Below are positions 11,528-27,959 of a stretch of DNA of 64,000 nt, in pieces. Source of the DNA: Escherichia virus TH55; sequence record MT446421.1; one strand, given 5' to 3'. How positions within the stretch are numbered: the stretch's first letter is position 1; each line of letters begins with the position of its first letter. Below the pieces are notes generated by a model, which saw only the letters and a list, made by a program, of their open reading frames with translations, had not been told where the DNA came from and searched no databases. A program made the position numbers and the translations under genes.

Positions 11528-11976
11528 TTCTTCGCCTCAAAATGGATTACCGGGCACATCTTAGATTTACGAGCTTTGATATATTGAATGAAAACGTTTT
11601 CTTTAATTTCCTTTCCTTCGCGTTTGGCTAGAATGCGTTGCCATTCCTTTTCTTCTTTACGTAAATCATACCAGGACCATAAATTCATTAGACCGTACAT
11701 AATGCCAAAGGATACCACTAGAATAAGGGCCAGTGTAGCCAGTCCTAAAATAAATCCTAAGCTTAAACCAACCGGCATGCTTAATACAAAGAAATGCTCT
11801 AATACACCAGCCCCCGCGACAGTTAATCCAAAAACCATACTACCGATAAAAACGGCACAAACAAAACAAGCCCAAACCATTTTCCAGAAGTAAGCACACA
11901 AAGAGTGTGGTCGAGAATGACGGTCATAAAAACGGTCGTGTAATTTAACGTGCCAAGAGTTTGCATTGATAATCAT
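11524..11976 (-). CDS. membrane protein (150 aa)
   Basis: Three hydrophobic helices (e.g. VWACFVCAVFIGSMVFGLTVAGAGVL). Confidence 0.5.
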   Translation of the reverse strand: MIINANSWHVKLHDRFYDRHSRPHSLCAYFWKMVWACFVCAVFIGSMVFGLTVAGAGVLEHFFVLSMPVGLSLGFILGLATLALILVVSFGIMYGLMNLWSWYDLRKEEKEWQRILAKREGKEIKENVFIQYIKARKSKMCPVIHFEAKK

Positions 11977-11986
11977 AATATTTTCC

Positions 11987-12547
11987 TTAAGAGTTCATAG
12001 TTGGGATAACAGAGTTCAGATAAGAGACTAAAACTTTTAGCTCGTCCTTAGTAAATACCACTTCATTAAAACCATCGTGTACTTGGGTAATACATAGTTG
12101 GTCACGACCGTCATGTTGAACAACAGTCAGTTCAGTATTATAATTTAATTCTTCTTCGTCGCCGTCAAAGGTTTCGCTGGAGCGAATCAGTGCATCTTGG
12201 CCTGGTACTTTCCATTCGACTTCTGGCTTACATTCTTCCTGGAACAGTTTGAAAATACAATCAAAGAATTTATCAGAATCGCTAATGCTCAGACATTTTT
12301 CATCTGTTTCAATATTAAACCCACCATCGTGCTTATAAATGCGAGCGCATACATCATCGTTAATATCAAATACACCACTAAAACTACCGCTAAGATAATC
12401 CTGTTTATCTAAAACCTTTAAAGCATAAAGTGGTTTAATATCTTGGATAGTCAGTACGATTTTATCGTCTTCTTGACAAAGCTCAATTGCATTATTAACT
12501 ACTTCAGCGGTCAGTTCGCCAAACAATTCAGTTGTTTCAATAATCAT
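11987..12547 (-). CDS. hypothetical acidic protein (186 aa)
   Basis: Minus-strand ORF; strongly acidic. Confidence 0.5.
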   Translation of the reverse strand: MIIETTELFGELTAEVVNNAIELCQEDDKIVLTIQDIKPLYALKVLDKQDYLSGSFSGVFDINDDVCARIYKHDGGFNIETDEKCLSISDSDKFFDCIFKLFQEECKPEVEWKVPGQDALIRSSETFDGDEEELNYNTELTVVQHDGRDQLCITQVHDGFNEVVFTKDELKVLVSYLNSVIPTMNS

Positions 12548-14872: not shown

Positions 14873-15445
14873 TCAGCTTGTTAATTCGAGCCAGTGTTTT
14901 CTGCATAAAGATACGTACGATTCATTCCCACCGACTAACACTTGCTCGCCGTCCTTTACAGCAGCACCGTCGATTACTCTCGCGGTCATGGTTGCTTTCC
15001 GGCCGCAATGACAGACGCCCTTTAATTCAACCAGTTTATCCGAAATAGCCAGAAGTCTGGCTGAACCGGGAAATAATTGACCCCGAAAATCTGTTCTTAA
15101 CCCGTAACACATAACGGGGATATTGTAATTATCAACCACTTGAGCTAACTGGTCAATTTGCTCTGGTAACAAAAATTGAGCTTCATCGACCAGGACACAA
15201 TGGATATCCTTTTGAGACTCGGCCCATTTATAGAATTCAAACAGGTTCATGTCGGCCGTTACCAGGTTTGCTTCCTGGCTAATACCAATACGTGATTTAA
15301 TTTCAGATTCCGAGTCCCGATTATCAATAACAGGTTTTAGCAAAAGCACACTCATTCCACGCTCTTTATAGGAATAAGCTGCAGTCAGCAATGAAGCTGT
15401 TTTGCCTGCATTCATTGCTGCGTAATGATAAATTAAACTCGCCAT
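14873..15445 (-). CDS. tk: thymidine kinase
   Basis: 190 aa; P-loop NAGKTASL, C-terminal zinc Cys pairs (CHCG...CRKHW); T4 order rI-tk. Confidence 0.92.
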   Translation of the reverse strand: MASLIYHYAAMNAGKTASLLTAAYSYKERGMSVLLLKPVIDNRDSESEIKSRIGISQEANLVTADMNLFEFYKWAESQKDIHCVLVDEAQFLLPEQIDQLAQVVDNYNIPVMCYGLRTDFRGQLFPGSARLLAISDKLVELKGVCHCGRKATMTARVIDGAAVKDGEQVLVGGNESYVSLCRKHWLELTS

Positions 15446-19666: not shown

Positions 19667-19966
19667 TTAGAAAGAACCAGAACCTTTAATTGTGTTCTGG
19701 CGACCTTTATTTTCTAATTCAGAATGGTCGATTTCGTATGCTTGTGCTACACCAAAGGCCTTTTTAACTTTAGCTAAAGAGCCTTTAGATGTGACAATAT
19801 TAAAAGTATTGCCTTTAGTAAAATCAACCAAATCCACTTGTACACCCTGTTTACCGAGGCTTGCTACAATAGCATCAACATATTGTTGGTCTAAATTGCC
19901 CTGGACTCCGATTTGAAATGCTTTGGGAGCTTTGGCTTCAGTAATAAATTCTTGATAAGTTTTCAT
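19667..19966 (-). CDS. internal-protein-like capsid-targeted protein (about 99 aa)
   Basis: Start at M14 gives N-terminus MKTYQEFITEA, the capsid targeting sequence of T4 internal proteins; early promoter 19997-20026 upstream. Confidence 0.6.
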   Translation of the reverse strand: MKTYQEFITEAKAPKAFQIGVQGNLDQQYVDAIVASLGKQGVQVDLVDFTKGNTFNIVTSKGSLAKVKKAFGVAQAYEIDHSELENKGRQNTIKGSGSF

Positions 19967-19996
19967 TTTATATTCCATTGTTTGGTTAATAAAATC

Positions 19997-20026
19997 ATTA
20001 TACAACCTTTTTAGTTAAGCGTACAC
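19997..20026 (-). promoter_or_regulatory. T4-type early promoter
   Basis: Minus strand: -35 TGTACG/GTGTAC, 17-18 nt, -10 TATAAT; upstream of MKTYQEF start at 19966. Confidence 0.5.
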
Positions 20027-20486: not shown

Positions 20487-20756
20487 TCATTTCTTAGAGT
20501 ATTGACCCATAAGTTTAGCGATATCACCCAATTTCTGATTAAACAAATAATCCACTTCTTTGCCAGATTTATCTACAATTTGCCACTGACCATTTCCTTT
20601 GTTGCCAAAGGTCCAATCACCGACTTTAAATGAAGTTCCATTAACTTTTTTAATAGAAGTAAACTCAAAGCCTTCTTTCTTAGCTAAAAATGCCATGCGG
20701 CTTTCATCTGATTCATTTAATACAGATTCAGCCAAAAATTCTTGATACGTTTTCAT
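20487..20756 (-). CDS. internal protein II-like capsid-targeted protein
   Basis: 89 aa; N-terminal MKTYQEFLAES capsid targeting sequence; between denV and e as ipII/ipIII in T4. Confidence 0.7.
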   Translation of the reverse strand: MKTYQEFLAESVLNESDESRMAFLAKKEGFEFTSIKKVNGTSFKVGDWTFGNKGNGQWQIVDKSGKEVDYLFNQKLGDIAKLMGQYSKK

Positions 20757-21741: not shown

Positions 21742-21970
21742 CGTCACGTTTCCATGATTGGTTAAAAATATCACTCATTAAAAATTCAAGTCTATTTTCC
21801 AATGAAGGGCTTTCACTACTAGAAACTTGAACCATGTAGTCGGAAATAGGTCGGAACATATCCAAGTCAGTTTCTAAATCATCTTTGATTTTCTCTTCTG
21901 ATGTACCTGTATCATAGGAATACAGATAAGAATCACATGACTCTGATTTAATATAAATTGCAATACTCAT
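21734..21970 (-). CDS. hypothetical acidic protein (78 aa)
   Basis: Minus-strand ORF, ATGA coupling. Confidence 0.45.
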   Translation of the reverse strand: MSIAIYIKSESCDSYLYSYDTGTSEEKIKDDLETDLDMFRPISDYMVQVSSSESPSLENRLEFLMSDIFNQSWKRDDE

Positions 21971-22554
21971 TTACGGCATTCCTCAATAAAGGAGTTCAAT
22001 GTATTTTTCTTAGTGATATCGTCATATACCTTTTTAACTTTAGAAATACGAAAAGGTACTTCAATAACCATAGTCCATAAAAATGATGCAATAAGTCCAG
22101 CAAGAGCAGTAGAAAAGCACGCACCCATTACAGCTACGGGTGCTTCATTTTTGCCTGTCAAGAAAAACCACAGGAATGGTAAAAATAAGATTCCAGCCCA
22201 GGCATAAAACCTGGAACAAATTAACTTATCAAATTCATCACTCCAGGTACGAAATCCATATTTCTTGCTATAAGAAATTAATGGGTCGGGTGTCTGTTCT
22301 TTGAGTGGTTCTGGTTGATACCCATTAATGATATATCCCATTTTATATTCCTTAATTAAAAGCTCTTTCACATGACGATTGCATCGCGACCAATCAACAT
22401 TTTCCACCTTGATTCCTTCATCACCATCATCAAGGTTCGCCCAATATTTTTTGGTAATCATAAATTCATCTCTTGATACAATTATACCTGCATTTTCCGA
22501 CCGACGGATGAAGTTTACATCAACACCCATACAACCCGGCTCATAAAGGGCCAT
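21967..22554 (-). CDS. membrane protein with C-terminal FIEECRK tail (195 aa)
   Basis: Two TM helices in C-terminal half; C-terminus ...NTLNSFIEECRK shared with three other ORFs here. Confidence 0.5.
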   Translation of the reverse strand: MALYEPGCMGVDVNFIRRSENAGIIVSRDEFMITKKYWANLDDGDEGIKVENVDWSRCNRHVKELLIKEYKMGYIINGYQPEPLKEQTPDPLISYSKKYGFRTWSDEFDKLICSRFYAWAGILFLPFLWFFLTGKNEAPVAVMGACFSTALAGLIASFLWTMVIEVPFRISKVKKVYDDITKKNTLNSFIEECRK

Positions 22555-23240
22555 TACCAGCCCTCCATAGGGAATTCCAGATATACTTGAGCATTAACGC
22601 GGATTTCATTTGTAATCTTTTTAACACGGTCGGTATTACGAGACACACGACCAAACCAGCGCCAACCGTTACTTACTGCGCGAGAACCTGTATGCCATGT
22701 CTGCCAATCAAACTGGAGCAACGTGCGGTCAGGAGCATCCCACTTGGCTAATTCATTGGACTCAATTTTTTCCAGAACTTCTTTATGCCACTGACGATAG
22801 ATAAGTTCGCCTTCAGGAATCTGACTAAATTGTGCAGTTCCGGTTGCAAAATAAGTAGGACACACATCAGCGTTAACAAGACCAAGAATATGTTCAGAAT
22901 GGTAACGAGGATTATCATAATCAGGTTGCCCTGCAGTAATAAAGTGTTGACCAACCGGAATATCCGGGCGTGGTACATCGTCATGGTGATAACCTGGGAT
23001 AGCAGGATACCAACCAGGCATCAGCATATGAACCCGAGAATCAAATACAACCTGGTCGGTGTTCCAATCATCCGGCAGACTCATAATAAAGCTACGAGTA
23101 ATAGGACCGCCATTGTCAAAAGCGAAAGCCAATGAGCTGTTGAAGAACATAGTTTCGTTTTTGATTTTATCATTAGAAATTTTACCAGCGAAACTGCCTA
23201 CTGCATGAGCTTGAGAATTAAAAGTTTTTGGACCGTTCAT
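22554..23240 (-). CDS. hypothetical protein (228 aa)
   Basis: Minus-strand ORF; His/Trp/Pro-rich; possible weak early promoter upstream. Confidence 0.5.
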   Translation of the reverse strand: MNGPKTFNSQAHAVGSFAGKISNDKIKNETMFFNSSLAFAFDNGGPITRSFIMSLPDDWNTDQVVFDSRVHMLMPGWYPAIPGYHHDDVPRPDIPVGQHFITAGQPDYDNPRYHSEHILGLVNADVCPTYFATGTAQFSQIPEGELIYRQWHKEVLEKIESNELAKWDAPDRTLLQFDWQTWHTGSRAVSNGWRWFGRVSRNTDRVKKITNEIRVNAQVYLEFPMEGW

Positions 23241-23299
23241 AATATTTTCCTCATTGATTGTGGGACCATTGTGTCATAGTCCCACTTGGATGTACACAC

Positions 23300-24280
23300 T
23301 TATTTTTCGAAAGGACGAATTAAATGTTGGTTAGCCTTGAAACGTTTAACATAGTCTTCGTGACCCAGGGTGTTGTACATATTAACCACTTCCTGGTAAT
23401 GTTCCCAGGCATACTCGCGGAACCATCCAGAAGTAATGGAGGTGCAGACTTTTTCCAGCGCAATATGGAAGCTCACGGATGGAGAGATATTGAACTCATT
23501 GGGAACCTGCGAACGCTCCAGAGCGAGTACACATGCTTCTTCATAAACCCCTGCCAGTTTAATAATCTCAGGGAGTGCTTCAAATTTTTCACGCGAGGTC
23601 ATAACTTCTGAATCATCTTTCATATAGAACTTATATGCAGGCTTATCAGCAAGCGCCACGGCCTCGTGGATGGAGTCATGGTCAAGGGTATAGATTGTAT
23701 CATTAAAGAAAGTTTTCTTGCCCACGTCTAGTTTAGGGTGACTATATGACAATGTTTCTGCCTGGCGCTGCAGCATGATTTTATGCAGTTCGTCATTAAG
23801 AACAACCCCCTTATTGCGAAGGTAATTAATATGACTCATGGTCTTCAGGAAGAATGGATTGTTCTTCAGGTAACGATGAGACAATTTAATTGCCAGACAA
23901 ATATCAGGAGTCGCCCAGTAAAAACCAGATAGACGGTCTTTCTGAATATTTGCCTTCGCATATTTGAGTAAACGATAACTGGAGGTAAAATCTTCCTCTT
24001 GTAGCTCATCAGTCAGCTCACGAACACTTGTCAATGCGCGGACGATGTACGCTTCAAAATAGGTTTCTTTACCATTGTGCATACATTTAAAAGCTTGAAC
24101 ATCTGGGTTATCCACATGCACATGTTGTCCCATCATCTGGGTTTTAAAGCTATTCCAGGAGCCCTGGTCAGCGATAAAGTCCCAATCAGAGTTTTCAATT
24201 TTCTGACTTTCAATCAGACCAGCGTTATGTAATGCACGAGAACCAATAACTAACATCATAATATTTTCCTCAAATAACAC
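23300..24280 (-). CDS. hypothetical protein (326 aa), weak nucleotidyltransferase-like N-terminus
   Basis: N-terminal LVIGSRALHNAG...SDWDF loosely resembles GS...DxD nucleotidyltransferase motif (spacing atypical). Confidence 0.5.
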   Translation of the reverse strand: MLFEENIMMLVIGSRALHNAGLIESQKIENSDWDFIADQGSWNSFKTQMMGQHVHVDNPDVQAFKCMHNGKETYFEAYIVRALTSVRELTDELQEEDFTSSYRLLKYAKANIQKDRLSGFYWATPDICLAIKLSHRYLKNNPFFLKTMSHINYLRNKGVVLNDELHKIMLQRQAETLSYSHPKLDVGKKTFFNDTIYTLDHDSIHEAVALADKPAYKFYMKDDSEVMTSREKFEALPEIIKLAGVYEEACVLALERSQVPNEFNISPSVSFHIALEKVCTSITSGWFREYAWEHYQEVVNMYNTLGHEDYVKRFKANQHLIRPFEK

Positions 24281-24511
24281 TTAAATTTCAGCAGCAGAGA
24301 TATTAGATTCATCTATCATCTCAGAGGCGGACCCCTTAACGATAGGAACCAATTTGCCATAGAGGTCTTCATTATAAGGGTCGTTGATACAGTGTGCATC
24401 TTCAAAACGAACACCGTAATCAGACTTCTTATAAACGAGACCGTAAATCTTTGTAAACTTAGCACGACTAATTTTTACAGGCTCATCAGTCATTGGGGCG
24501 TAATACCACAT
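24281..24511 (-). CDS. hypothetical protein (76 aa)
   Basis: Preceded by early promoter 24540-24568 and SD GAGGA. Confidence 0.45.
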   Translation of the reverse strand: MWYYAPMTDEPVKISRAKFTKIYGLVYKKSDYGVRFEDAHCINDPYNEDLYGKLVPIVKGSASEMIDESNISAAEI

Positions 24512-24539
24512 AATGTTTTCCTCATTAGTTGACGAAATA

Positions 24540-24568
24540 ATGATACTACATTTCTTTAGGCTTGTACA
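24540..24568 (-). promoter_or_regulatory. T4-type early promoter
   Basis: Minus strand: -35 TGTACA, 17 nt, -10 TATCAT; upstream of 24281-24511. Confidence 0.55.
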
Positions 24569-24614
24569 CTAAATTTCTGCACATAAGTCCTCCTATCACA
24601 TCCTTGTGATTAAA

Positions 24615-24842
24615 TTATTTTCCTAACGAAATACGAGTAGGTTTTTTACCGAAATATTCTTCATAGGAACCATCTAAACGACCTGCTTTAGACCGACAGT
24701 ATGAATCATACTTTTTGTAATAAGTCAACTCTGTATTGTAACGTGGATGTCTATCAGCCATAATAATACTTAACGGCCAGCCTTTAGCATAATCGATAAG
24801 ACCATTTATTTTACGAATATATCTTTTCTTTAATTTTAGCAT
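24615..24842 (-). CDS. hypothetical basic protein (75 aa)
   Basis: Minus-strand ORF. Confidence 0.4.
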   Translation of the reverse strand: MLKLKKRYIRKINGLIDYAKGWPLSIIMADRHPRYNTELTYYKKYDSYCRSKAGRLDGSYEEYFGKKPTRISLGK

Positions 24843-25069
24843 GAGCTTGGGTACCAGATTTTACCATCGGCACGAGCAACGAAGGTGCGACCAGCTTCTT
24901 CACCATAACAAGAGCTGTTCAACCAGTCTTCAAGACGGACTTCGCCGTCATAATCATCAAGCTCGACACCGAAATCTTGAGCAGAAGCCATATCTTTTAC
25001 TTTCTTATACAGCGCGGCCAGTTCAAGGGCAGCTTTTTCTAATTCAGCATGTTCAACAGCAGTAGTCAT
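24836..25069 (-). CDS. small acidic protein, C-terminal W-x-SS-C family member A (77 aa)
   Basis: Ends ...GKIWYPSSC; first of five tandem paralogues. Confidence 0.5.
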   Translation of the reverse strand: MTTAVEHAELEKAALELAALYKKVKDMASAQDFGVELDDYDGEVRLEDWLNSSCYGEEAGRTFVARADGKIWYPSSC

Positions 25070-25078
25070 TTTATCACC

Positions 25079-25309
25079 TTAGCAAGTCATAGAGGAGTTA
25101 AACCAGAAACCCTGGCCATCATTGATGCCGTAATCACTGCGAATCCAGTCATATTCTTCATATTCTTCGCTAGAAGCCGGAATATAACGTTGGAAACGGT
25201 CTGCGGCGTGTAAATTAAAAATTTCACCGGTTTTATCGGCTAACTGCTCACCTTCACAGATTAGTGCACGGATTTGGTCTTCAATTTCTTTAACAGTTTT
25301 AGTAGTCAT
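25079..25309 (-). CDS. small acidic protein, W-x-SS-x-C family member B (76 aa)
   Basis: Ends ...GFWFNSSMTC; helical acidic N-terminus similar to neighbours. Confidence 0.55.
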   Translation of the reverse strand: MTTKTVKEIEDQIRALICEGEQLADKTGEIFNLHAADRFQRYIPASSEEYEEYDWIRSDYGINDGQGFWFNSSMTC

Positions 25310-25318
25310 TTTATAACC

Positions 25319-25516
25319 TTAGCATTCATAAGAGGAGGACACCCAAGAGGTACCGCTAATAGTAATACAACCATTATAAAGCGTAATATGTTGTTCCAGA
25401 TTACGCTGACCGTCAATATAGATATCAGCTTCTTCGCGTTCTTCTTTGCAAATCTGGATAACGTTTTCAATAGCTGCCGCGGCAGTACGGATTGCACAAT
25501 CTAATTCACGAGACAT
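25319..25516 (-). CDS. small acidic protein, W-V-SSS-x-E-C family member C (about 65 aa)
   Basis: Ends ...TSWVSSSYEC; start placed at second ATG preceded by AAGGA. Confidence 0.55.
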   Translation of the reverse strand: MSRELDCAIRTAAAAIENVIQICKEEREEADIYIDGQRNLEQHITLYNGCITISGTSWVSSSYEC

Positions 25517-25524
25517 ATAATTCC

Positions 25525-25806
25525 TTAACATTCAGAAGAGGAGGACACCCAACCGCCATTTTCTAGGTCGGTTGTGTAGTCATGAGTATTAACAATAGCC
25601 CATTCAGGATGACCATCTTCTTCCCAATGAGCAAGGTCAGCTTTCAAGGCGCCAGGAGAATAATAGTCACCGCCCATACCGCGAGCAGGGTATATATTAA
25701 AATGAGTCTCATATTTGTCTGCAATTTCCTCAGCACGGCGAATGGCTTCATGGATTTCTTTTACTGCGGCCAGAAGCTCTGGTTGGTTATGGTTATCATT
25801 CATCAT
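25525..25806 (-). CDS. small acidic protein, W-V-SSS-x-E-C family member D (about 93 aa)
   Basis: Ends ...GGWVSSSSEC; ORF-track frame (160 aa) trimmed to M68 because upstream gene ends at 25808. Confidence 0.55.
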   Translation of the reverse strand: MMNDNHNQPELLAAVKEIHEAIRRAEEIADKYETHFNIYPARGMGGDYYSPGALKADLAHWEEDGHPEWAIVNTHDYTTDLENGGWVSSSSEC

Positions 25807-25807
25807 A

Positions 25808-26098
25808 TTAGCACATCTCAGAAGAGGAAACCCAGGCACCAACAGTAACAACGCCGTTTTCAACTCGCCCGCCGTTGTTTTCAATATGGTGAGCGAACCA
25901 TTCGGAACATTCATAACCAACTGGATGATATGTACGGCCGGTGCCGTAATCACCAGTGCTGAATTCGATACCATATTCATCTGCGATTTCTTCACAGTGT
26001 TTTTCAATTTCAGAGGTCTTATTTAGAAGAGAATAGATGGCTTTTTCTGCAGATTTCTCATCATAATACTTGGGGATAGCAATTTCAATTTTATTCAT
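25808..26098 (-). CDS. small acidic protein, W-V-SSS-x-E-C family member E (96 aa)
   Basis: Ends ...GAWVSSSEMC; shares EEIADxY...F block with member D. Confidence 0.55.
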   Translation of the reverse strand: MNKIEIAIPKYYDEKSAEKAIYSLLNKTSEIEKHCEEIADEYGIEFSTGDYGTGRTYHPVGYECSEWFAHHIENNGGRVENGVVTVGAWVSSSEMC

Positions 26099-26448
26099 GA
26101 TTTACATTCCTTAATAAAGGTTTCAAGGTCATTACGTTTTGTTTTGTCTAGGAACTTATTATACTCAGCCATTGCCAAAGCGTATCTCTTTCGGCTGGGA
26201 GCATTCACGGCATTTGTGTGACAGATATCATACACAACCGGGATAAAATAAGCCACAACAGCCGGAGCAATTATCATAAAGAAGCCCATCTCAATAGGCA
26301 TGACTCCCTCGATTGCAGCCATAACCGTGGTCATTACCAGACCAACCAAACCACCAAGCATGGCAGTGACAATCCCCAATAATAAATTGCCGCCAATATC
26401 ATATTCAGCCAATTGATAAACATGTGATGCAAGACTAGGCCGTTCCAT
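26095..26448 (-). CDS. membrane protein with C-terminal FIKECKS tail (about 117 aa)
   Basis: Two TM helices; C-terminus ...NDLETFIKECKS; start at M32 to limit overlap. Confidence 0.45.
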   Translation of the reverse strand: MERPSLASHVYQLAEYDIGGNLLLGIVTAMLGGLVGLVMTTVMAAIEGVMPIEMGFFMIIAPAVVAYFIPVVYDICHTNAVNAPSRKRYALAMAEYNKFLDKTKRNDLETFIKECKS

Positions 26449-26794
26449 TACGAACCTCCTTAATAAATTCTTCGGCACATTTAATTTTGTGCTCTTCTTG
26501 TAGGGAAACACATTTTTGTTCCCACTCTTTAACTCGTCCACGGTATCCTTTATTCATATGATTTTGATGCCACACATTTATCAAAATCATACTCAGGACT
26601 GTAATAAAAGGAGCTGCGATTATTAGCGCCCAGGCAACTCCAACACTAATGATACTCATATCCCCACAAAGCACCATCATTATAACCCCAACGATGCATA
26701 TGGACAGGGCCCCAAATGCTGGCATAAGGTCTTTATCAATTTTGTCTGCGTATACAAATTTTTCTGGTTTACTTGGCAGATATAACGTTCGCAT
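26435..26794 (-). CDS. membrane protein with C-terminal FIKEVR tail (about 119 aa)
   Basis: Two TM helices; C-terminal ...CAEEFIKEVRNGTA; start ambiguous. Confidence 0.45.
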   Translation of the reverse strand: MRTLYLPSKPEKFVYADKIDKDLMPAFGALSICIVGVIMMVLCGDMSIISVGVAWALIIAAPFITVLSMILINVWHQNHMNKGYRGRVKEWEQKCVSLQEEHKIKCAEEFIKEVRNGTA

Positions 26795-27341
26795 TTTGAA
26801 CCCCTTTAGCATATTCACGACATTCAGCAATAAAACGATTAAGCTTACGTTTCCGTTTACGACCCTCTAATGTATACTCAGCCGCCAAATCAAGAAGCTC
26901 ATCTTTATCATAATTTTTAATATCAGTATAAGTTGGGCGGCGGTCAACCATTCCAAAGTGGTCACCATTTTCCAACATCAAATAACACACCAAATGGTCA
27001 TCATCGTCCGCATTAATAAGCTGCTTATAATCACTTGGTTCATTTAACGCATACACAGAATAACTCAGCCCAGCGAATTCCACTCGTTGAATACCCAGAT
27101 TTACGTCAATAATTTCCAAGGCATCTGCAAAAGAAAGGTCTTCAGCTAAAGCAAAAATAAAAGGCAATTTGGTAGTATCGCCGCGACTTGTTGTTCTTCT
27201 TAAGAAATCATTGGAATAGCCCAAGTCGCGGCGGATTCTATAAAGAACTGTGTTAGTTTCAGTGGCAAGACCACTACCGCCAAACCATTCCACATTTGAT
27301 AAAAGATTATCATATAAAGTCATAATTTTCTCCTCTCCCAA
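26769..27341 (-). CDS. hypothetical protein with C-terminal FIAECR motif (190 aa)
   Basis: Soluble; C-terminal ...RKRKRKLNRFIAECREYAK... Confidence 0.5.
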   Translation of the reverse strand: MGEEKIMTLYDNLLSNVEWFGGSGLATETNTVLYRIRRDLGYSNDFLRRTTSRGDTTKLPFIFALAEDLSFADALEIIDVNLGIQRVEFAGLSYSVYALNEPSDYKQLINADDDDHLVCYLMLENGDHFGMVDRRPTYTDIKNYDKDELLDLAAEYTLEGRKRKRKLNRFIAECREYAKGVQNANVISAK

Positions 27342-27365
27342 TTAGGGGGCTTTGCCCCCTTTATC

Positions 27366-27959
27366 TTACTTAAGTGAATTGATGTATTCTTCAATGTCAG
27401 CGGACGTGGTATCCACACCAACCTGTGGACCTTTGAAGGTTTCAACACGCATCAAGGTGTCTTCAATATCAATCTTAGTCAATGCAGCGATTTCAACAAC
27501 ATCATCTGCAGTCGCAATACCCAGGGCAGATACCTTACGGGTTTCGCGGATGTATTCCAGTTTAACAGCTAGTTCCTGACGAGAATCATCCAGCTCTTTA
27601 ACTTTCAATTTAATTTCATTACGCATTTCAACATAATCGTCTGCCTTCTTACGAAGTTGTTTAGCAGTGCGACGATACAGGAGACCCAGTTTAGCATGGA
27701 CCTGGACATCAGCACCATCAGCAATCAGTTTGCGGATTTCACGCTCTTTTGAGGCGGCGAGTTGGTCTTTTTCATTCGCTAACTCGCGGATGCGTTTTTC
27801 TTCATTAACAGACTTAACGTGGGCGGTCTGGAGCTCAGTAATCTTGTCAATCAGGGTAGACGCCGCTTGAGTATATTGGTCTTCAATAGACAGGTTTTTT
27901 GCCATTGCAGTACCCAGTTTGGAGCGGATGAATTCAACAAGTTTCTTTAAAGTATTCAT
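27366..27959 (-). CDS. coiled-coil protein (197 aa), possibly PspA/IM30-like
   Basis: Almost entirely heptad-rich helix; resemblance to PspA is impressionistic only. Confidence 0.5.

Follow-up and report, generated by a model that had tools for sequence, protein, structure and literature searches.

A conserved C-terminal tail shared by the products of genes e.2 to e.5 in T4-like phages, next to a divergent PspA/Vipp1 homolog

The stretch of DNA analyzed here, in the following called the window, comprises 64,000 nucleotides of Escherichia virus TH55 (sequence record MT446421.1) and contains four open reading frames (ORFs) whose products end in a related short motif. These ORFs are identified below as the orthologs of genes e.2, e.3, e.4 and e.5 of phage T4, and their C-terminal tail emerges from sequence comparisons as a strongly conserved feature at the protein level. 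The tail appears to be a portable module, predicted to form a short amphipathic helix, and occurs in a gene cluster that is headed by e.6, which family profile and modeled fold identify as a homolog of the PspA/Vipp1/IM30 proteins. We put the chances at about even that the tail serves as a docking helix, either for a common partner or of its carriers for each other, by which a single inner-membrane-associated complex would be formed.

A sequence-only reading of the window had claimed that four ORFs end in a shared motif. All four exist on the minus strand, and their C-termini are exactly as quoted there: ...KKNTLNSFIEECRK for e.2, ...KRNDLETFIKECKS for e.3, ...CAEEFIKEVRNGTA for e.4 and ...RKLNRFIAECREYAKGVQNANVISAK for the ORF at 26769-27341, which contains e.5. 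The e.4 copy is degenerate, with V replacing C. Among the 244 ORFs of at least 45 residues in the window, three contain the pattern F[IV]x[ED]C[RK], in each case within 15 residues of the C-terminus, compared to a mean of 0.009 and a maximum of one tail hit in 1000 per-protein shuffles, so a chance frequency of the motif is not what is observed. Neither is the motif absent from homologs; it is present in them throughout the T4-like phages, and the claim is therefore not refuted from this side either.

The assignment of the four ORFs to T4 e.2, e.3, e.4 and e.5 is based on PHROG matches (Table 1), comparisons with hhalign, synteny with T4, RB69 and SP18, and the matching C-termini of the T4 proteins. 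The window region is 100% identical to Escherichia phage UPEC07 (Gaprivervirus, T4-like family Straboviridae). All genes of this region are carried by the minus strand in the local order e.6 > e.5 > e.4 > e.3 ... e.2 > nudE > e (lysozyme) > denV, with other small genes interleaved, and the order between e.6 and nudE/e is common to the window phage, SP18, T4 and RB69. T4 e.3 and T4 e.4 fall into the same PHROGs as their counterparts in the window (phrog_2330, E 2.9e-57, and phrog_2604, E 1.5e-70, respectively). The e.5 protein of the window is strongly divergent, and its link to T4 e.5 is visible by profile-profile comparison only, in which it matched the alignment of the e.5 superfamily with an hhalign probability of 96.6% (E 4.8e-10, 158 columns). 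The start of this gene is likely the ATG at 27323, behind the strong ribosome-binding site GGAGAGGAG, and not the TTG at 27341. In T4, e.3 ends with ...MKEFVIDCRKIK (FVIDCRK), e.4 with ...IMKFVKESRCKSQS (FVKESRC) and e.5 with ...LLEKFVKECREYVKAITIPSK (FVKECRE). The T4 reference e.2 is frameshifted (NC_000866, 67472-67960), and its annotated product of 102 residues lacks the second transmembrane (TM) helix and the tail; the downstream frame still codes for ...NLNNFITECRKLK (FITECRK), and the intact e.2 of close relatives, with 162 residues, has the same end. T4 e.2 to e.5 (PHROGs 2203, 2330, 2604 and 2607/8788), which are listed as hypothetical or predicted membrane proteins, share with the window genes their order, their sizes, the two-TM layout of e.2 to e.4 and the C-terminal motif.

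Hydropathy and charge also bear out the claim that three of the carriers are two-helix membrane proteins with the motif on a cytoplasmic tail, namely for e.2, e.3 and e.4; e.5 is predicted to be soluble. The tails of the TM proteins have a net charge of about +4 and the loop between the two TM helices is short and acidic, which, following the positive-inside rule, places the tail in the cytoplasm. Pfam and NCBIfam contain no families for e.2 to e.5, and the labels "portal vertex protein" and "host specificity protein" that some of the genes of this cluster have received in GenBank are unsupported. Profile searches against PDB sequences with e.5 and e.2 yielded nothing credible, and a word-indexed homolog search with e.3 and e.5, including the superfamily alignment as query, returned close relatives only. 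An AlphaFold2 (AF2) model of the e.5 ortholog, calculated from an alignment of 22 mostly closely related sequences, had a predicted local distance difference test score (pLDDT) of 37 and was unusable; residues 154-183 were helical at low confidence.

The consensus was derived from 175 non-redundant tails, 129 of which contain the cysteine. It consists of a module of about ten residues with the core [LIVF]-x-x-F-[IV]-x-x-C-[RK], and usually continues with another one to three residues of basic or polar character. When the phenylalanine is numbered 0, position -3 is hydrophobic (L, then I, F, V), position -2 is E, N or D, position 0 is F (rarely Y or W), position +1 is I or V, position +4 is C and position +5 is R (sometimes K), after which a short, mostly basic end follows; acidic residues are frequent at -4, -2 and +3. 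From the consensus proposed by the sequence-only reading, basic-(N/D)-L-x-x-F-I-x-E-C-(R/K), the core of hydrophobic residue, F, I/V, C and R/K holds beyond the window, whereas the leading basic-(N/D) and the E are not conserved more widely. Among 18 sequences of the e.5 superfamily with identities of 10-20%, the only invariant columns are N94, F164 and C168, and in each of the alignments of e.2, e.3 and e.4 the motif is the best-conserved segment. On a helix, positions -3, 0, +1 and +4 (L, F, I, C) lie inside an arc of 100 degrees, and since they share one helix face, the module is predicted to be a short amphipathic helix. The mean hydrophobic moment of the 11-residue window around it is 1.74, compared to 0.87 +/- 0.43 in the remaining windows of these proteins (96.8th percentile of the background).

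At the conserved positions of the motif tails codons are used freely. Phenylalanine is encoded by TTT and TTC (99/53), isoleucine by ATT, ATC and ATA (90/26/15) and cysteine by TGT and TGC (71/58), and for arginine all six codons from both codon families occur (AGA 50, CGT 41, AGG 18, CGA 17, CGC 13, CGG 10). This indicates that selection acts on the peptide.

The carriers do not form a single protein family, as the sequence-only reading had assumed. In hhalign comparisons, e.3 and e.4 align over the second TM helix plus the tail (96.5%, 51 columns), e.3 and e.2 over the 17-residue tail only, and e.3 and e.5 exclusively over the 13 residues of the tail; for e.4 and e.2 nothing useful was aligned. 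Weak PHROG cross-hits over the TM region were obtained between e.3 and e.2, e.4 and e.3, RB69 ORF133c and e.2, and a three-TM protein of a Klebsiella phage and e.2, by which the families of e.2, e.3, e.4, ORF133c and phrog_21248 are joined. The e.2, e.3 and e.4 proteins are therefore best seen as putative remote paralogs of one "two-TM plus tail" module, and the sharing of the tail among these three would partly be due to common descent. To this extent the description as a shared tail on otherwise divergent proteins has to be restricted; it stands for e.5 and for the small soluble proteins of about 95-160 residues found in other genera (phrog_22510, phrog_29231), which are built on unrelated scaffolds. 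The non-redundant carriers comprise 68 TM-bearing and 61 soluble proteins. Because the same tail is found on scaffolds without detectable similarity elsewhere, it is identified as a portable module that occurs on at least three of them, i.e., the e.5 superfamily, the two-TM proteins and soluble proteins of about 95 residues.

The distribution of the tail was followed in loci anchored on e.6, from nine further genera in GenBank phage records and from 46 loci of IMG/VR. In the gene-strand ORFs of the 46 IMG/VR loci the pattern [FYW][IV]xxC[RK] was found 124 times, always downstream of e.6 and no more than 25 residues from the C-terminus. Upstream of e.6 it did not occur in these loci at all, as six apparent hits belong to loci with e.6 at a different offset, and on the opposite strand it was present in one of 508 ORFs. 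The first gene after e.6 contains the full motif in 41 of 45 loci and at least the F[IV]xxC core in 43, the difference being two Ceceduovirus loci that have the core only; the remaining two loci have a neighbor of truncated or frameshifted appearance, and at one of the two (L024) the motif is found on an overlapping ORF. Even metagenomic relatives of e.6 with only 23-25% identity have neighbors with SFIDECK, KFVISCY or SFVRDCF. In more distant lineages (Aeromonas phages and Pseudotevenvirus) the motif is found on the e.5-like gene only, and the two-TM carriers appear from this distribution to be an elaboration of the Tevenvirinae. Across the whole T4 genome (802 ORFs, both strands) [FYW][IV]xxC[RK] occurs in e.2, e.3 and e.5 only, plus tk. 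The corresponding sequence YVSLCRK in the thymidine kinase of the window, located eight residues from the C-terminus, was rejected as chance match, as it is part of the conserved C-terminus of this enzyme and the same in T4 tk. In Enterobacter phage UFV01, an unannotated gap of the GenBank record contains at 11918-12256 an ORF for a two-TM protein of 112 residues ending with LENFISRCRIKR. The e.5-like genes of UFV01 and of IMG/VR locus L049 appear truncated.

The gene e.6 always precedes the motif carriers, and its product is 75% identical between the window phage and T4. A profile built from 26 representatives of the e.6 family, collected from 1.84 billion clustered proteins, matched solved chains of Vipp1, IM30, sll0617 and PspA with E-values of 8.8e-5 to 6e-3, and the match is colinear (query 1-141 to chain 1-142). 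A smaller e.6 profile yielded the same PspA/Vipp1 matches, at weaker scores. Likewise, PspA_IM30 (PF04012) was the Pfam family matched by most of the representatives (5/26, best E 8.9e-10). The AF2 model of e.6 (pLDDT 85) has a helix at residues 2-22 (alpha0), a long hairpin (25-80 and 86-145) and short C-terminal helices. When this model was compared to the PDB with Foldseek, the top ten matches were all Vipp1 or PspA structures with a probability of 1.00, archaeal CdvB2 was found lower down, and the superposition on 6zvs_A had a root-mean-square deviation of 3.0 over 122 columns. These observations identify e.6 as a divergent homolog of PspA/Vipp1/IM30, the bacterial ESCRT-III proteins that repair and remodel membranes, with membership resting on the family profile and the predicted fold. 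The family comprises about 36 clusters at 50% identity among the 1.84 billion proteins, and its full-length members have about 195-205 residues. A collection of bacterial genomes contained a single relative of e.6 (L066; 32% identity), on a 178-kb contig of a Flagellimonas marina assembly (NZ_JBHSCL010000010.1). This contig is probably that of a T4-like phage within the assembly, with an e.6 resembling those of Pseudotevenvirus or Slopekvirus.

That the tail is a docking helix is suggested by the combination of several of the features described above: a predicted cytoplasmic, amphipathic C-terminal helix that is under selection as a peptide, its presence on unrelated scaffolds, the co-transcription of its mostly overlapping genes, and its confinement to a cluster headed by a PspA-like gene. 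In such a mechanism, the C-terminal helix would dock the co-expressed and translationally coupled products of e.2 to e.5 onto a common partner or onto one another, and the complex assembled in this way would sit at the inner membrane. The best candidate for the partner would be e.6, whose gene stands at the head of the cluster in every case, although this identification is tentative, and we regard it as possible rather than probable; other candidate receptors are a host protein and the body of e.5, in which N94 is invariant together with residues of the tail. With e.6 as partner, e.2 to e.4 might act as its membrane anchors, adaptors or regulators, in the way of LiaI for LiaH or PspB/PspC for PspA, and e.5 might be a soluble adaptor or regulator. 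More speculatively, and with considerable doubt on our side, T4-like phages might encode their own Psp/ESCRT-III-type module for the remodeling or protection of membranes, consisting of e.6, the soluble e.5, the two-TM proteins e.2, e.3 and e.4 and lineage-specific extras that are recognized via the F-[IV]-x-x-C-[RK] helix. Such a module would control the integrity of the inner membrane during infection, e.g., against membrane-depolarizing abortive infection, in lysis inhibition or in head assembly at the membrane.

Several observations weigh against this proposal. The e.6 protein of the window itself had no match to PF04012 at E<=1, and accordingly no PspA score in Pfam. The cysteine of the motif is swapped for V, I, S or M in many e.4 orthologs and in phrog_9350, with the rest of the motif kept, and is therefore not universally required. 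As e.6 contains no cysteine, neither a disulfide nor a common metal site between it and the otherwise invariant cysteine of the tail is possible. Charge co-variation between the two was not above chance either: D124 and E173 of e.6 are lost in two lineages without a basic residue at +5, but such an overlap is expected by chance, since a very divergent lineage has lost most of the conserved acidic columns. Finally, the synteny with e.6 may reflect merely a conserved early operon.

The arrangement of a PspA-type gene beside genes for small membrane proteins with cytoplasmic tails, as seen for e.6, is also known for PspA with PspB/PspC in enterobacteria and for LiaH with LiaI in Bacillus, and small membrane anchors or adaptors have been described to recruit proteins of the PspA family (PMC7619361). 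In contrast to the Psp and Lia systems, the system of the window is phage-encoded and comprises several paralogous putative anchors plus a soluble carrier. Searches of e.2 to e.5 against Pfam and NCBIfam (E<=1 or 0.1) yielded no match to the PspB, PspC or LiaI families, and among the partners of the Psp and Lia systems we know of no counterpart to the F-[IV]-x-x-C-[RK] tail. A conceptual likeness, and no more than that, exists to the MIM-MIT interaction of eukaryotic and archaeal ESCRT-III, in which a short amphipathic docking helix likewise lies at the extreme C-terminus and has a basic last residue. MIM motifs are part of the ESCRT-III subunits and interact with the MIT domains of Vps4, whereas the motif described here is found on the neighbors of e.6 and not on e.6, has another consensus, and comes without any MIT or Vps4-like gene that we could see.

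With regard to its novelty, the shared tail is unannotated and, as far as the papers searched can tell, undescribed: searches for the gene names returned nothing relevant, and neither Pfam and NCBIfam nor these papers record a function or a shared motif. The gene heading the unit is identified here as a PspA/Vipp1 homolog, and in the searched literature on phage-encoded PspA no paper was found that mentions such a homolog in T4-like phages; a large comparative study of Psp partners does not discuss phages (PMC11237479). Five T4 genes listed as "hypothetical", e.2 to e.6, would by this be turned into one probable and testable functional unit. The genes e.2 to e.8 belong to the roughly half of T4 genes without known function, though they are conserved across the Straboviridae. 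The tail itself is a precise peptide that can be mutated or can serve as bait, F, C and R being the obvious residues for point mutants. If it does dock onto a phage ESCRT-III-like polymer, this would be the first Psp-type system encoded by a phage and equipped with an adaptor code of its own, and it would bear on the question of how virulent phages keep the host membrane energized until lysis. Even with a different partner, the motif would provide an affinity handle by which that partner could be found.

As an alternative to docking, the tail might be an amphipathic targeting helix that lies in the plane of the inner membrane, tethers e.5 and stabilizes the two-TM proteins without any protein partner. 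Its extreme C-terminal position, high hydrophobic moment and basic flanks would suit such a role, as would the fact that half of the carriers are membrane proteins and that the setting is a PspA-like, membrane-directed gene cluster. The same position, amphipathicity and basic flanks are found in the membrane-targeting helices of MinD, FtsA and MreB. Helices of this kind tolerate wide sequence variation, whereas F and C do not vary at all among e.5 proteins with a mere 10-20% identity, and R/K at +5 is almost constant. The invariant Phe, Cys and Arg together with the frequent acidic residues set the tail apart from the helices of MinD, FtsA and MreB and point to specific recognition over lipid binding; acidic residues at -4, -2 and +3 are unfavorable for contact with an anionic membrane, and the hydrophobic face comprises only about four residues. 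We therefore consider a pure membrane-targeting role unlikely.

Similarly improbable, in our view, is that the tail reflects inheritance combined with an intramolecular role, that is, that it is the end of an ancient domain which packs on its own protein body and that the segment reached e.5 through recombination with e.4, which overlaps it. The homology of e.3 and e.4 over TM2 plus tail and the weak cross-hits that join e.2, e.3, e.4, ORF133c and phrog_21248 are in line with this explanation, as are the physical overlap of e.5 and e.4 and the co-invariance of N94 in the body of e.5 with F and C, which could mean that the tail packs there. It does not account for tails on at least three scaffolds lacking similarity outside the tail, nor for the two-TM hairpin, which has no cytoplasmic body for packing, and within each family no part is better conserved than the motif.

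It appears quite unlikely that the tail is primarily a cysteine-centered site, in which a reactive Cys-Arg thiol would gather several tails through a metal clasp, a disulfide or redox switch, or a covalent modification. The cysteine is indeed invariant in the e.5 superfamily and, wherever it occurs among the non-redundant tails, has R/K directly after it. A second family of small acidic proteins, which also end with a conserved terminal cysteine (W-x-SS-x(0-3)-C-COOH) and had been pointed out by the sequence-only reading, is encoded nearby and co-occurs with the tail in 33 of the 46 e.6-anchored loci; its genes all lie on the gene strand and are in most cases located between e.3 and e.2. This family is absent from T4-type and Pseudotevenvirus loci, however, and whole subfamilies of carriers (e.4, phrog_9350) do without the cysteine as described above. 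Moreover, the cytoplasm is reducing, and each tail has a single cysteine with neither a CxxC nor a histidine partner.

A very unlikely explanation is that the tail is a tag read by a host factor, such as a chaperone (DnaK), a protease (FtsH, Lon, ClpXP) or the insertion machinery, which would set the stability or localization of the carriers. Restriction of the motif to the C-terminus fits this possibility, and chaperone and degron signals have in general the same style, with a hydrophobic core, basic flanks and an extreme C-terminal position. Confinement to one cluster among about 280 T4 genes would not be expected for such a tag, and the known C-terminal signals of ClpX are LAA-like or RRKKAI-like, which the tail does not match.

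At the nucleotide level, part of the motif has a second function. The codons for positions +2 and +3 in e.2, e.3 and e.4 of the window read GAGGAA, AAGGAA and AAGGAGG, respectively, and are followed at a distance of 6-9 nt by the start codon of the next, overlapping gene. The GAGGAA of e.2 (E-E) doubles as Shine-Dalgarno (SD) sequence for a gene with its ATG at 21970, the AAGGAA of e.3 (K-E) is the SD of a gene starting at 26098, and the AAGGAGG of e.4 serves the start of e.3 at 26448. SD-like purine runs over +2/+3 were found in 24 of 57 tails that end no more than three residues from the stop, compared to 6 of 72 longer tails (odds ratio 8, Fisher p 7e-6), and the K-E/E-E pair of the motif as first proposed appears from this to result largely from dual coding with the SD of the following gene. 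That the shared ends as a whole reflect SD and translational-coupling signals or recombination "linker" sequences instead of a protein motif is, despite these three of four window genes and the enrichment near the stop, extremely improbable, as all synonymous codons occur at the positions of F, I/V, C and R/K and in e.5 about 30 nt separate the motif from the SD downstream of it; being refuted for the core, this explanation accounts for the K-E/E-E preference only. Recombination linkers as origin of the tails were rejected, since the window copies have no more than 11 consecutive nucleotides exactly in common.

Table 1. Position of the tail-bearing genes, their motif copies and further features in the window.
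Feature	Position	Strand	Description
e.6 ortholog	27366..27959	-	annotated as "host specificity protein" or hypothetical; heads the motif-gene cluster
e.5 ortholog (divergent)	26769..27323	-	184 residues, soluble, no TM helix; phrog_8788
Motif copy in e.5	26817..26843	-	LNRFIAECR, residues 161-169
e.4 ortholog	26435..26794	-	119 residues, two-TM; phrog_2604, E 4.1e-43; named e.4 in SP18 annotation; alignment
Degenerate motif copy in e.4	26450..26476	-	AEEFIKEVR; C to V as in many e.4 orthologs
e.3 ortholog	26095..26448	-	117 residues, two-TM, basic tail predicted cytoplasmic; phrog_2330, E 6.8e-46; aligned with T4 and RB69 e.3
Motif copy in e.3	26101..26127	-	LETFIKECK, residues 108-116
e.2 ortholog	21967..22554	-	195 residues; phrog_2203, E 4.9e-66; named e.2 in SP18 annotation; by hydropathy and charge, soluble N-terminal part, TM helices at about residues 116-134 and 140-164, basic tail with motif
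Motif copy in e.2	21973..21999	-	LNSFIEECR, residues 186-194
Hairpin	27344..27360	-	GGGGGC-AAA-GCCCCC, G+C-rich, between e.6 and e.5
W-x-SS-x(0-3)-C-COOH proteins	24836-26098	-	five tandem genes
Larger conserved gene	23300-24259	-	between W-x-SS-x-C genes and e.2
Larger conserved gene	22554-23240	-	between W-x-SS-x-C genes and e.2
Internal-protein-like ORF	19667-20005	-	starts with MKTYQEF(I/L)xE
Internal-protein-like ORF	20487-20756	-	starts with MKTYQEF(I/L)xE
Thymidine kinase	14873-15445	-	YVSLCRK near C-terminus

Among the remaining features of the region, the motif of e.5 is followed by an extension of 15 residues that overlaps the start of e.4. Compared to T4, the window phage has about 3.5 kb of additional genes separating e.3 from e.2. 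They include the two larger conserved genes inserted between the W-x-SS-x-C genes and e.2, both absent at this place in T4; the product of one matches DUF7277 and DUF7275 (Pfam, E 1e-75), and that of the other is a 228-residue protein assigned to phrog_1843 without Pfam match. Scans for promoters and terminators in the region stayed at background level. The hairpin between e.6 and e.5, which has a counterpart at the same place in T4, lacks a T-run behind it on the gene strand and is for this reason more likely an element for the stability or processing of the RNA than a terminator.

The window also contains two internal-protein-like ORFs (Table 1). The capsid targeting sequence of T4 internal proteins, MKTYQEFIAE, has the tetrapeptide F-I-x-E in common with the tail. 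The targeting sequence is found at the N-terminus, is a substrate of the prohead protease, by which it is cleaved, and does not contain the invariant C-R; conversely, K-T-Y-Q is missing from the tails. With only four residues in common, at opposite ends of the proteins, this likeness was judged to be due to chance.

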